Assembly (NCBI GenBank): GCA_027263115.1 | Contig: GCA_027263115.1_3656.1 | Length of the DNA stretch: 64,000 bases | From: a phage | Strand: one strand, 5' to 3' | Shown here: in pieces, positions 2,872 to 7,155 of the stretch | How positions within the stretch are numbered: position 1 is the first letter of the stretch | How the letters are laid out: each line of letters starts with the position of its first letter | Made by a program: the position numbers and the translations under genes | Notes under the pieces: generated by a model | What the model was told of the DNA's origin: nothing | The model's input: the letters and a program-made list of their open reading frames with translations, nothing else | Database searches by the model: none

Positions 2872-3117
2872 CTATAGCTCCACTAGCAAAGTGCTTTCAA
2901 AGTGCCGTTCATGCAAACCGTTGTAAGGGACCACTTCTACAACGCCATCACGGACATATGGGGCCATCATGGTGGTATAATCTCCAAACGGGTTGGTATT
3001 GTCACTAACCACAACCACCTTCTGCCCTTCCTTGGCAGAGTGCCAAATAGATCTGCACTTCATCAGGTGTTCGAGAGCTCCAGGTAAAATTTTGTTACGT
3101 TCTTTACGGGTCTTCAT
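2872..3117 (-). CDS. hypothetical protein
   Basis: 81-aa ORF, tight spacing with neighbours. Confidence 0.45.
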   Translation of the reverse strand: MKTRKERNKILPGALEHLMKCRSIWHSAKEGQKVVVVSDNTNPFGDYTTMMAPYVRDGVVEVVPYNGLHERHFESTLLVEL

Positions 3118-3563
3118 AACAGATATAGCTCCTTATGAAAGTGGTCTTTTAATTTCTCACTGAGAAACTTCTTGATACCTTCCTCTAAAGTGTTTTCGAT
3201 GTAGTCCAGCTTAACTGCTTCGATGGACATATCATAGATCGCCAGCTCTAAGCTGTCAAGTCCCATCATAGCATGAACCATAAGATTTTCATCTTCAGAT
3301 ACATTCAGGGGGCTTCCTATAACATCTGGAGGCAGAATAGTTTCCCAATTATTCTGGGCGGTAGTTCTCCCTCCCTCTACTTTACGGCGCAGTTCGAATG
3401 TGTTCTTAGTGTAGAACACTTCATAAGAAACGATACGACTGTCGCTCTCATAATAAACGAAGTTCAGGTAGGAGCCTAGCCGCAGTCGGCAAACTTCCAC
3501 CCCAAACCATTGTTTCTTATAAGAATTCAGGCTAATGCTGTCGCATTCACGTTTGCTCAACAC
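3114..3563 (-). CDS. hypothetical protein
   Basis: 149-aa ORF, overlaps upstream stop. Confidence 0.5.
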   Translation of the reverse strand: MLSKRECDSISLNSYKKQWFGVEVCRLRLGSYLNFVYYESDSRIVSYEVFYTKNTFELRRKVEGGRTTAQNNWETILPPDVIGSPLNVSEDENLMVHAMMGLDSLELAIYDMSIEAVKLDYIENTLEEGIKKFLSEKLKDHFHKELYLL

Positions 3564-3578: not shown

Positions 3579-3812
3579 TTAATCTTCGTAAATCAGGATT
3601 TCTGCTTTAGGTTTTCGTGCTTTCAGGTCCAGCTCTATCCAGTGCACCATAGCTGTTTCAAGAAAAACAGCTTGGATGCATCCGTCCTCAGCGTGCCCCA
3701 CCAACATAACGAGATCTTCACCTTCGTCATCTGCATCACGAACATAAAGAATCTCTCCAGATTCAAAGTCTTTCACAACCTGATTGCTAGATAATTTACG
3801 AATTTTTGCCAT
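3579..3812 (-). CDS. hypothetical protein
   Basis: 77-aa ORF. Confidence 0.45.
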   Translation of the reverse strand: MAKIRKLSSNQVVKDFESGEILYVRDADDEGEDLVMLVGHAEDGCIQAVFLETAMVHWIELDLKARKPKAEILIYED

Positions 3813-3813
3813 A

Positions 3814-4077
3814 TCAGAAACCCTCTAAAAAGCTCTTGTAGAAAACAATCTCAGTATCCACACCAGTCACAATCTTGTCGTTCCTGATTTCATCGGTAAG
3901 ATAGGTGTCAAAACGCAGAACCTGTGTGGTGTTGTCACACATCCACTCAGCTGTGACCATTGCGAAAATCTTAGCATCTTCATTATCTGGTGTGAATGTT
4001 ACCACCTCACCGCACTTAAACTTTTCGATAGGTTGAGTGTTAGCTTTCGGTTCTGCGATAGTGATTTTTGTGGTCAT
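3814..4077 (-). CDS. small protein, tandem paralog 3 of 3
   Basis: 87 aa; same length as the two upstream ORFs, shared N-terminal pattern, ATGA overlap. Confidence 0.55.
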   Translation of the reverse strand: MTTKITIAEPKANTQPIEKFKCGEVVTFTPDNEDAKIFAMVTAEWMCDNTTQVLRFDTYLTDEIRNDKIVTGVDTEIVFYKSFLEGF

Positions 4078-4340
4078 TATTCTCCTCCTTCTTTTGAATA
4101 GCTTGTCTCTCCAAGGATGGTAATTTTGGTGTCAAGCTCTGTAACTTTCATGTTTGGTGGCAGATCGTACAACTCATTATTTTCTAAATCGAACCCCCAC
4201 ACACAATGTTCTCCTGTTTTGACAATCATAACTATGTTTTGAATGCCGTCTCCGTCGCAACTTACCACGGTCCCACACGGAAAGCTGTCTGCACGCTTTT
4301 TGTTCTTCACCTTAGAATTGAATACAATGCTGGTAGCCAT
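4077..4340 (-). CDS. small protein, tandem paralog 2 of 3
   Basis: 87 aa; MATxxxFxSxxKxKK start shared with the 4340-4603 paralog. Confidence 0.55.
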   Translation of the reverse strand: MATSIVFNSKVKNKKRADSFPCGTVVSCDGDGIQNIVMIVKTGEHCVWGFDLENNELYDLPPNMKVTELDTKITILGETSYSKEGGE

Positions 4341-4603
4341 TATTGTTCCTCCACCATAACTTCGCCAAGAATTTCTATGCAGGCATCCATTTCTGTAACA
4401 ACCAAACTGTGAGGTAGTTCTACAAACACCTTTCTGAACAGGTCAAATACCCCAACATATATGTTTGCAGGATGTGATTTTACAACAAGTGCTGTATTCA
4501 CATCCCCAAGTTCATCAACAAACATCACCACAGTGCCTGGAGCTACTGAGGACAGATACTTCTTAGTTTTACGGTTTGATGCAAATTTTAACTCTGTTGC
4601 CAT
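4340..4603 (-). CDS. small protein, tandem paralog 1 of 3
   Basis: 87 aa; first of three head-to-tail paralogs. Confidence 0.55.
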   Translation of the reverse strand: MATELKFASNRKTKKYLSSVAPGTVVMFVDELGDVNTALVVKSHPANIYVGVFDLFRKVFVELPHSLVVTEMDACIEILGEVMVEEQ

Positions 4604-4635
4604 AAATAACCTCCTCTCTTACTTAGCGTACTCGA

Positions 4636-6099
4636 TTAATTCCACAGTTTTCCCAAAGCTCGGGATATAATTTTTATTATACCCCTCAGTGAGGACCCAT
4701 AGAGTATCGTACTTTTCCACTTGTTGTCAACAACCTTTTGTTCAAAGTTATGCTCAAAGTATAGGTCGGTCAGGACGATGACATCTTTTGCATTAGGTAT
4801 GTTGGCATCCAGATACTCGAACACGCAAGCAGCTGTTGTGCCCCATGTTGAGTGGACCTCATAGTTGATCATCTCGTCTATGTTGCCGCGAGTGTATACT
4901 TTAACCTCTCCAACCTCAGTTGACCAACAGAACATTGTAACCTTAAACTCTTTATACAGATTGCACAATCCGGTGATTTCATTGAACATTTTCTTTAAAG
5001 TTCTTTGAGAGATCGAGCCAGAAACGTCTAAAGCCACCACAATATCTATAGTGTTTTCCGGATTACGACCAGGAACAATAACGTGCTGGTTCTTGTTTAT
5101 AGCCCCAACTTTTCGCATTGTGCTGGTCAAAGACCCAGATCGGCGACCAGGTTTTCTGTAGGTCAGTTCGGCCTTTCTTTTAGACAACATGCGTTGCTTA
5201 ATGATGTCTATATAGTTGATTACAGGTTTACCTCTGTTCTTGACAAACTCACGCACCGCCTCAGGGCAACGGCCTCCGGACGCTTGCATTGCTGCCTCCA
5301 GCATATCACCAGAGTCCTGCATGGCCTGATCTTTATCAGATTGGCTGATTACAGGTTGTGGCTGATCATACCCCATAGCCTTTCCAAGATTATCGCTGGT
5401 GCCACCGTTCCCACTCATGTGATCATCGGTTTGTCGCTTATCACTTTGAGAGTTCTCACCTTTACCGTTCTTACTTTTACCGTTATTCTGATCTCTTTGC
5501 TTATCAAGAACTGCATAAACGTTCTCAGCAATCCATCCATGAAACTTCATGTCGCAGTAGCAGCTGGCTAAGAAGCCAAAAGGCTTACCTTTCACGAACG
5601 TAGTGCTTTTCCCCTTCGGGAAGAAAACACAAGGAGGTTTGCTAAAGTCAACCACAAGGCCTGTGTTGATAACGTGATCACAAGCAATATTGAACAGTTC
5701 CGGCTCAAAGCTTTTACCACGGACTAGGTGATCACAGATAATATGCCCCACCTCATGTGACAGAAGGAAGGCCACCTCTTTCACAGATTTTGGGGAATAG
5801 AAAACTTCAGCCATCTCAAACTGCTCGTCAGTTAGAGAAGCCTTAAGAATAGCCTTGCGTTCATCAGCCAATCCCATAATGAACTCAGGACTGTAATAGA
5901 TGCGTTTATGGTCGGTTGCCATGGTGGAGCACCATGTGTGGTTTTCTACGAACTGCAACCCTGACAGTAGTGTGCCATAGAACGGCAGCTTTTCAAGGAG
6001 ATACATACGTGCAGCCTGCAACATTCTCAGGGCATCATCTTTCTGCGAGGCAATGATTTCTGAACTTCTGCTATCCATTAAAACTCCAGAAGGGGCCAT
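4636..6099 (-). CDS. vWA domain protein with N-terminal HExxH putative metallopeptidase domain
   Basis: HEVGH zinc-peptidase motif plus VVALDVSGSIS MIDAS-type vWA motif; real start may be the internal Met near 6078 preceded by GGAG. Confidence 0.65.
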   Translation of the reverse strand: MAPSGVLMDSRSSEIIASQKDDALRMLQAARMYLLEKLPFYGTLLSGLQFVENHTWCSTMATDHKRIYYSPEFIMGLADERKAILKASLTDEQFEMAEVFYSPKSVKEVAFLLSHEVGHIICDHLVRGKSFEPELFNIACDHVINTGLVVDFSKPPCVFFPKGKSTTFVKGKPFGFLASCYCDMKFHGWIAENVYAVLDKQRDQNNGKSKNGKGENSQSDKRQTDDHMSGNGGTSDNLGKAMGYDQPQPVISQSDKDQAMQDSGDMLEAAMQASGGRCPEAVREFVKNRGKPVINYIDIIKQRMLSKRKAELTYRKPGRRSGSLTSTMRKVGAINKNQHVIVPGRNPENTIDIVVALDVSGSISQRTLKKMFNEITGLCNLYKEFKVTMFCWSTEVGEVKVYTRGNIDEMINYEVHSTWGTTAACVFEYLDANIPNAKDVIVLTDLYFEHNFEQKVVDNKWKSTILYGSSLRGIIKIISRALGKLWN

Positions 6100-6112
6100 T
6101 GGCCCCTGTTAT
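6087..6112 (-). terminator. intergenic hairpin, possible leftward terminator or attenuator
   Basis: inverted repeat aggggccattggcccct between the 6112-7155 stop and the next gene; weak U-tract. Confidence 0.35.
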
Positions 6113-7155
6113 TATTTAACGTGTTTGAAAATACCTGCCAACTCGGTCATTGTCATGCGGGTGGTCTTCATAAGATCTGTCATAGCTTTCTCCATAATTG
6201 GAGATACTACCATAAAGTTTCCTTTAGTGAAACCTTTATTCCAGTCGGTCACCAACAGAGGTTTAAGTCCAGCTCCAAGACGTTCACCAGTTAAAGCACA
6301 GCATTTGCGAATATACGAACTCTTAAATTGGCTGAACGACAGATCAACTTTCATACCTACATCGTAGAACGTTTGACAATAGAAAGTGTAAGCTTTGGCA
6401 ATCTCAACATCATCAGGTAGTGCAGGAACCTCTTCTGTAAGCTCCTCTTCGACCTCCTGAGTCTCTTTTTCCTCTTCATGCACCTGTTGCGTCATTTCTT
6501 CAATCTCTTCTGTGATAGGCTCGTTTACAATGTCGGAAATGTGCTTCTTGGGTGCACGATAAGTAACTTTAGACATCGGTAGCATATCTTCCTCCTCTTC
6601 TTCGTCAAAGAGTGCTAGTTTATCCTCTTCCGTTCCATATTGCAAGATGAAATCTTCAAAAGTATAATCACCTTTCAATTTCTCCATACGCTCTTCGCTC
6701 AGGTGGAGCATCATCTGCTGGACAATTTTTCGATCAGTTTCGTCTTTAATCAAGACTGCAGTCTTTTTATCTACCAGACAGTCCTTTAGAGAGTTGCATC
6801 TCAATCCCACCACACAACAGTTATCAACCGCATAAGGACCTTCATCATCTATCCGCTCCAGAGATGGGTAGAAAGGATTTCCCAGCCCGTTTTCATCTGT
6901 GTGCATGTCAAAAGGTATAAGGGTATAGTCGCATACTCCATCTCCTAAAAGTTTTTTACCAAATAGGAGGTATTCTTCCCATGACAGGTCGAACTCTATA
7001 TCTCGTTTCCGTGCGTTATTCTGTTTGCGTCTATATTTTTTGAGCAAGCGCTCTAACTCTTCTGGTGTATAATATTTTTCAAGATTCATGAGTCGTCTCT
7101 CGTGCTCTGTAAGTGAAGAAATCGTATCAATTGTCTCAACAGATGTCAACATCAA
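6112..7155 (-). CDS. HNH-like endonuclease domain protein with acidic C-terminal region
   Basis: N-terminal region carries an SLERID...PY..DN....CN..K pattern typical of a phage HNH variant; possible internal start at MSKVTYRA (see inverted repeat finding). Confidence 0.45.
   Translation of the reverse strand: MMLTSVETIDTISSLTEHERRLMNLEKYYTPEELERLLKKYRRKQNNARKRDIEFDLSWEEYLLFGKKLLGDGVCDYTLIPFDMHTDENGLGNPFYPSLERIDDEGPYAVDNCCVVGLRCNSLKDCLVDKKTAVLIKDETDRKIVQQMMLHLSEERMEKLKGDYTFEDFILQYGTEEDKLALFDEEEEEDMLPMSKVTYRAPKKHISDIVNEPITEEIEEMTQQVHEEEKETQEVEEELTEEVPALPDDVEIAKAYTFYCQTFYDVGMKVDLSFSQFKSSYIRKCCALTGERLGAGLKPLLVTDWNKGFTKGNFMVVSPIMEKAMTDLMKTTRMTMTELAGIFKHVK

Follow-up and report, generated by a model that had tools for sequence, protein, structure and literature searches.

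Does a row of small, equally long genes in a phage genome record a recent amplification, and what could such a row contribute to the biology of its carrier? This question is raised by positions 3,814 to 4,603 of a 64,000-nucleotide stretch of phage DNA (in the following, the window), which an initial annotation had described as a recent tandem triplication of one gene, the copies sharing sequence patterns and being translationally coupled via overlapping ATGA junctions. From the evidence presented below, we consider it probable that genes A, B, C, and probably the adjacent D instead are old paralogs of one small gene arranged in tandem. Its product is predicted to be an SH3-like barrel, and the array is subject to cassette recombination. 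The relevant features are compiled in Table 1.

Table 1. Genes, junctions, and regulatory features in and around the array (positions refer to the window).
Feature	Position	Strand	Description	Basis
Gene A	4340..4603	-	87 aa, subtype A, phrog_10698; first in variable cassette	ORF, annotated CDS
Gene B	4077..4340	-	87 aa, subtype B, phrog_10698; second in variable cassette	ORF, annotated CDS
Gene C	3814..4077	-	87 aa, phrog_12861	ORF, annotated CDS
Gene D	3579..3812	-	77 aa, phrog_12046; probably the fourth array gene and the most diverged one
Gene E	3114-3563		149 aa, early gene, phrog_6790
DUF2201_N/VWA gene	4636-6099	-
Srd-like gene	6112-7155
Sigma-70-like promoter	7121..7149	-	TTGACA-17-TACGAT with TG; heads the leftward unit of Srd-like gene, DUF2201/VWA gene, and A-D
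A/B junction	4338..4342	-	TAATG, stop of A and start of B share one base	CAATAATGG
B/C junction	4075..4079	-	TAATG(A), 1-nt overlap	GAATAATGACC
Dimorphic cassette A+B	4078..4603	-	replaced by a single 85-aa rV5 gp014-type gene in relatives	tblastn counts, DNA identity

Source Phage and Genomic Context

A 4.9-kb stretch around the array is 99.9 % identical to Escherichia phage vB_EcoM_Gotham, and about 115 further rV5-like phages (genus Vequintavirus, species murica) match it at 97-99 %; judged by its sequence, the window represents a coliphage of the rV5-like type, Vequintavirus murica. This coliphage group also includes phages of the BASEL collection, for example, MaxTheCat (locus tags bas57_). 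Sixteen public records named "Campylobacter phage" (host Campylobacter jejuni; e. g., C12, A13b, and A147) are 98-99 % identical over the region, and either the host assignment or the sample purity of these records looks doubtful.

ORF listing and translation bore out three consecutive minus-strand ORFs of exactly 87 aa, each with an ATG start, and all three are annotated CDSs ("hypothetical protein") in Gotham, Murica, and others (more than 100 phages). The array is located between a DUF2201/VWA gene ("metallopeptidase") and the phrog_6790 gene E, with A-D lying downstream of the Srd-like ("anti-sigma") and DUF2201/VWA genes in a leftward unit. The promoter at the head of this unit is a PhagePromoter prediction in Gotham and the annotated promoter P11 in rV5. 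The unit would be the first leftward one to be driven by sigma-70, and A-D would be co-transcribed early, a timing suggested by promoter predictions only. In Seunavirus, Mydovirus, Avunavirus, and phage W70, a homolog of E directly follows the DUF2201/VWA gene, and the A-D block is thus a Vequintavirus-specific insertion. Genes of 86-87 aa upstream of the DUF2201 gene in Seunavirus, Mydovirus, and Avunavirus were considered as relocated homologs and discarded, as they belong to a different family and lack similarity to the array; in these other Vequintavirinae genera, the gene (MYEDILGRPAS...) is conserved and lies between the Srd-like and DUF2201 genes (2167-2430 in contig L008, 2197-2457 in L009, and 2192-2455 in L011).

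Public names in this neighborhood are in conflict: RefSeq/PHROG-derived records call both the DUF2201/VWA protein and the Srd-like protein "HNH endonuclease", and the product of E is named "tail protein", while Pfam backs only a DUF2201_N and a VWA-like domain in the DUF2201/VWA gene. The names given to these three products look like propagated mis-annotations. The DUF2201/VWA gene, which is split into gp012/gp013 in the rV5 reference, furthermore carries a 1-bp deletion in an A5 run at 4708-4722 (GTGGAAAAAGT -> GTGGAAAAGT) as compared to Gotham, Murica, and FV3. This alters the last ~25 codons and shifts the stop from 4619 to 4636, and tblastn matches of the protein to relatives span only aa 1-462 of 487. 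The deletion may represent a true C-terminal variant or else an error in sequencing the homopolymer.

Junctions and Translation

The start codons of A, B, and C follow each other at a spacing of 263 nt. The ATGA overlaps that had been reported at their junctions did not withstand closer inspection: both A/B and B/C read TAATG, the stop TAA and the start ATG sharing one base. The letters ATGA are indeed present at B/C, but the TGA is a second in-frame stop of B after TAA. The C/D junction reads TGAtATG (3810-3816) and has no overlap. A genuine ATGA overlap was found in phage FV3, in which the TAA is changed to CAA. All lineages examined have retained overlapping stop and start codons (TAATG in rV5, naam, and the divergent contig L005 introduced below; ATGA in FV3).

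Each ATG is preceded at a distance of 5-7 nt by a Shine-Dalgarno (SD)-like GGAGG/AGGAGG within the preceding ORF; that of B (GGAGG) lies inside the last codons of A. Folding of the junction RNAs gave minimum free energies not distinct from those of shuffles (z 0.07-1.95), and no occluding structure was predicted. Overlapping stop and start codons (TAATG, ATGA) with coupling by termination-reinitiation are known in phage and bacterial operons. While A/B and B/C have the 1-nt stop/start overlap in common with such coupled operons, they differ from them in that every downstream gene is equipped with its own strong SD sequence, and folding predicts no RNA structure that would sequester it. Translational coupling of A, B, and C, initially asserted as a fact, is therefore plausible on this evidence but optional rather than required, and termination-reinitiation between the A-D genes may occur. 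Since the genes are tightly packed, with TAATG overlaps and their own SD sequences, A-D are expected to be co-transcribed and probably translated at similar levels.

Kinship among the Array Genes

A and B share 37-39 % amino acid identity (blastp E ~1e-11) and align globally with z=17.8 (0/3000 shuffles). Both match phrog_10698 over their full length (1-87 of 87; A with 145.6 bits and E=7.6e-43, B with 139.9 bits and E=4.8e-41), and mutual E values of A, B, and rV5 gp014 range from 1e-11 to 1e-19. For C, amino acid identity to A/B amounts to ~20-30 %; a blastp comparison among the operon genes A-G retrieved A-B as the only pair, leaving C unmatched to A or B, and the pairwise alignment of A and C alone was not significant (z=1.6). 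Taken by themselves, these values, along with the placement of A/B, C, and D in three separate PHROG families, would fit a scenario in which C and/or D are unrelated small genes that resemble A/B by chance or by convergence of beta-rich proteins.

This scenario is, however, at odds with the outcome of the profile comparisons. With a family HMM made from two divergent orthologues along with A, B, and rV5 gp014, C obtained 20.5 bits in a colinear alignment (1-75 vs. 1-77), a score reached by none of 5000 shuffles (maximum 11.1), and hhalign aligned C end-to-end and colinearly over 77 columns with a probability of 90.6 % (P=1.3e-6). Global alignments of C against B, gp014, and the L005 orthologues A′ and B′ gave z=4.0-6.5 (6.2-6.5 against A′ and B′), and a weak but colinear match of C to phrog_10698 was detected as well (E=0.078 with 38,880 models). 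From the HMM, hhalign, and pairwise-shuffle results, C is therefore regarded as a distant paralog of A/B.

The case of D is weaker on several counts: it obtained 7.8 bits against the HMM without C, which was reached by 5/5000 shuffles, and hhalign gave P=0.002 against C and 0.03 against A/B/gp014 (probabilities of 1.5 % and 14.5 %), values that are again compatible with an unrelated gene. On the other hand, D adjoins the array, aligns globally with C at z=4.6 (2/3000) and with B at z=4.0 (15/3000), whereas the control proteins F and the Seunavirus 87-aa protein remained at z ~0. Inclusion of C in the profile raises the score of D to 13 bits, and none of the other remaining hits among the 614 six-frame ORF stretches in the 64 kb of the window scores better. 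D is thus probably the fourth array member, and it appears very unlikely that C and/or D are unrelated to A/B.

The proposed descent of the tandem genes from one ancestral gene accordingly gained support. A and B are significantly similar in pairwise comparison, as is C to B, gp014, A′, and B′, although A-C alone is not. The term "triplication" probably falls one short, with D as a neighboring fourth member. Among the sequence patterns held to be shared, the MAT/MTT N-terminus and G(T/E)VV do occur in A, B, and C, whereas LGE is confined to A and B and is replaced by FLEGF in C. Phrog_10698, phrog_12861, and phrog_12046, to which A/B, C, and D show full-length matches (E 1e-41 to 1e-62), are kept apart in PHROGs but are joined here as distant paralogs, firmly for C and probably for D. 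The same genes in the same order are known as gp014, gp015, and gp016 (ORFs 14-16) in rV5, where one gp014-type gene takes the place of A+B.

Age of the Duplication

The equal length of 87 aa, the identical 263-nt spacing, the MAT/MTT and GxVV motifs, and the identical TAATG junctions are traits that a recent tandem triplication in this phage lineage could account for. High nucleotide identity and a head-to-tail DNA repeat, the hallmarks of recent duplication, are nevertheless missing from A/B/C. Not only is amino acid identity as low as stated above, but synonymous differences between the copies are saturated (proportion, pS, of 0.84-0.87), and neither a repeat search nor TRF found a ~264-nt periodic DNA repeat in the array.

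Further evidence against a young age comes from three contigs of a divergent rV5-like phage (L005-L007, from Logan/NCBI E. coli assemblies), the flanking proteins of which are only 55-78 % identical to those of the window. These contigs have the same gene order, with products of 88/85/87/77 aa, and TAATG junctions. The L005 orthologues are 58 % (A′ to A), 70 % (B′ to B), 98 % (C′ to C), and 95 % (D′ to D) identical to their counterparts, and because orthologous A′ and B′ stand in the same order, the split of A and B predates the divergence of the window and L005. In a neighbor-joining tree, A, B, and the gp014 type form three deep, about equidistant clades with 98-100 % bootstrap support, the branching order between which is unresolved. 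The equal length of 87 aa is in part a coincidence, as orthologues in relatives comprise 88, 85, 85, and 83 aa.

The dating as "recent" is hence refuted by the A-B identity of 38-39 %, the saturated pS, the missing DNA repeat, the A′/B′ orthologues, and the deep clades, and a recent triplication can be regarded as extremely improbable. The array is instead old, and the divergence of its copies, which took place long ago, has given rise to the subtypes A, B, C, G (the rV5 gp014 type), and probably D.

A Dimorphic Cassette at the Head of the Array

The relatives of the window differ in what precedes C. Searching with A by tblastn yielded 118 phage records, 44 of which contain A at at least 90 % identity together with a second place (B), while the other 74 show a single place with less than 60 % identity to A (gp014 type). 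C, in turn, is found at at least 93 % identity in all 118 Vequintavirus records (tblastn). In rV5 and FV3, for example, one gene of 85-89 aa (gp014 and FV3_00013, respectively) is followed by C and D; rV5 gp014 is ~40 % identical to A and to B alike. Within the AB type, A+B are 99 % conserved.

At the DNA level, the identity between the window and rV5 drops from ~96 % to ~50 %, or to sequence that cannot be aligned, precisely where A starts (ATG at 4603) and is regained at the start of C (4077). The flanks of the G-type phage rV5 are 94.7 % and 98.2 % identical to those of the window, as compared to 95.9 % and 98.1-98.2 % for the AB-type phages MaxTheCat and 10C2. Since the breakpoints coincide exactly with gene starts and the backbones are equally similar, the swap of A+B and gp014 is a recombinational cassette exchange. 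As this comparison of genomes shows, A+B and the single gp014-type gene are alternative alleles of one slot that are swapped at gene boundaries. Copy number in relatives thus does not reflect gain or loss of a repeat unit, as an amplification would imply, but the replacement of A+B by one ~40 %-identical gp014-type gene. Formation of rV5 gp014 as a hybrid of A and B by unequal crossover was also considered and rejected, as there is no clear segment-wise switch of identity and the three types form separate clades.

Selection and Recombination around C and D

The dN/dS ratios (~0.21 for A as compared to A′ of L005, 0.01-0.03 for C, and 0.04 for D) mark A, C, and D as real, constrained genes under purifying selection. 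The idea that A/B evolve unusually fast was considered and dismissed, since neighboring L005 products are equally diverged (Srd-like protein 59 %, E 61 %, and operon gene G 55 % identity). Instead, C-D are unusually similar to L005 because they are part of a putative recombination tract: a 600-bp tract (4077-3475; 6258-~6860 in L005) that extends from the start of C to ~90 nt into E, and thus covers C, D, and ~30 codons at the beginning of E, shows 90-95 % identity between the two phages, while its flanks reach only ~65-72 %. It has the appearance of a recombination tract whose beginning coincides exactly with the B|C junction, and the C-D block has apparently been exchanged between distant lineages. 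The B/C junction bounds both elements, the cassette on its right-hand side and the conserved C-D tract at its left end.

On a smaller scale, a segment inside C (~3850-3950) is only 80-86 % identical to rV5, with the surrounding DNA being 98-100 % identical. The differences in C are almost purely synonymous (protein 99 % identical, pS 0.35), and pS toward rV5 in D, E, and operon gene G is 0.04-0.07. This segment resembles a short patch of gene conversion on which strong purifying selection has acted.

Distribution of the Family and Origin of the Array

A search of 5.8 billion proteins returned 23 clusters, almost all on phage-sized contigs, and when 1.84 billion representatives were scanned exhaustively with HMMER, true members of the family numbered only three, besides three spurious repeat proteins; as far as these searches reach, the family is confined to rV5-like phages. 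One of these three, an 83-aa protein (P0024, 1355-1606 of the 2.7-kb ENA metagenome contig L012), is 63 % identical to gp014. On this contig, the gene stands singly between genes for 211-aa and 143-aa proteins with no C or D adjacent; the 143-aa protein is 53 % identical to that of the minus-strand window ORF 852-1199. As P0024 is alone in a different neighborhood, the gp014-type gene apparently also moves as a single unit.

Such mobility gives some room to another scenario, in which the array was built by capture of alleles from co-infecting relatives at the SD/stop-start junctions and the neighboring genes are xenologs. The exchange of whole cassettes with breakpoints at gene starts, the movement of the C-D tract between lineages, the solitary G-type gene on L012, and the about equal distances between A, B, and G would all be in line with it. 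Yet, the family occurs only in rV5-like phages, so that any donor would itself be closely related. Gene order and junction type agree between the window and L005, and duplication followed by divergence accounts for the same data. Assembly by allele capture is hence a possible, albeit less likely origin of the array.

Predicted Fold

AlphaFold2 models based on an 11-sequence alignment (pLDDT 80.6 and pTM 0.68 for A; pLDDT 79.7 and pTM 0.68 for C) show the same strand order for both proteins, with A being all-beta, and feature the five-stranded, strongly bent antiparallel barrel of ~50-60 residues by which the fold is recognized. A and C are thus predicted to fold as SH3-like (Tudor/KOW/uL2-type) small beta-barrels with an N-terminal beta extension. 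Structure prediction, which had been suggested as a check of their kinship, hence gives the same barrel for both, with the restriction that the C model is not independent of the A model, because both derive from this one alignment. An independent BFVD model of an identical protein from phage nomo superimposes on the A model with a TM score of 0.81.

Dozens of uncharacterized phage proteins of 70-90 aa in BFVD match the A model as well (E 4e-4 to 2e-2), while C-type proteins are absent from its top 50 matches. Barrel proteins of the same predicted size and fold occur, for example, in Vibrio phage Thalassa (A0A2H5BHC0), Serratia phage Hera (A0A7T3N9D3), Salmonella phage 7-11, and Proteus phage 3H10_20 (Foldseek E 4e-4 to 1e-2, TM 0.55-0.7), and several phages have more than one of them. 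None is characterized, and in contrast to the members of the array, they have no detectable sequence relationship to it (8-22 % identity). The array proteins are only 7-20 % identical to Tudor, KOW, uL2, EF-P/eIF5A domain I, and the UvrD/PcrA Tudor domain, and they differ from members of the SH3-like superfold by an extra N-terminal beta-hairpin and an acidic tail. Pfam gave no Tudor/KOW/SH3 match at E<=1, a PDB profile search a single match (E=0.5), PADLOC no match, and NCBIfam only sub-threshold noise. All members are acidic (pI 4.5-5.0) and small (~9-10 kDa). The predicted resemblance in fold says nothing about the ligand.

Possible Functions

Their small size, the place behind a sigma-70-like promoter, and the cassette dimorphism are traits that phage accessory genes for anti-defense or host takeover would also show. 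The products could be non-enzymatic single-domain binders that act early, each on the surface of a host (or phage) macromolecule, and duplication and divergence may have led to different binding specificities. A binder role in host takeover or counter-defense is proposed as the most likely one, if only tentatively. These genes are not mentioned in the paper on the rV5 genome, in the BASEL paper, or in a PNAS paper of 2026. Given the strong conservation of A+B among AB-type phages, rapid diversification of the kind that an arms race might bring about does not seem to be under way.

A more specific scenario would have A-D act as RNA polymerase (RNAP)-binding Tudor-like factors that, together with the Srd-like anti-sigma gene, redirect host transcription. 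It draws on the likeness to the RNAP-interacting Tudor domains of UvrD/PcrA, Mfd, and CarD, but support for this ligand is no better than for any other, and we deem this role quite unlikely. Somewhat less doubtful, though still unlikely, is a broader version, in which the four acidic SH3/Tudor-like proteins are diversified host-factor binders that constitute a polymorphic host-takeover or anti-defense module of rV5-like coliphages, either as mimics of the RNAP-interacting Tudor domains of UvrD/Mfd/CarD or as inhibitors of defense systems. If true, the dimorphism of A+B and gp014 would be kept since the alternative alleles neutralize different host variants, and the locus would represent a previously unrecognized module of these abundant phages.

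Conclusions

Summed up, over-readings of the locus as a "recent amplification" with "ATGA overlaps" are corrected, and three PHROG families annotated without function are joined as a single diverged family of paralogs for which an SH3-like barrel is predicted. The array is an instance of ordinary phage mosaic architecture and of modest practical value. It nonetheless offers a clean two-allele cassette in a group of coliphages that are widely used in therapy and as models and whose backbones are otherwise equivalent, and this natural dimorphism is a ready-made experiment on host range or sensitivity to defense; should the proteins have no measurable effect, the locus would add one more case of mosaic ORFan early genes.
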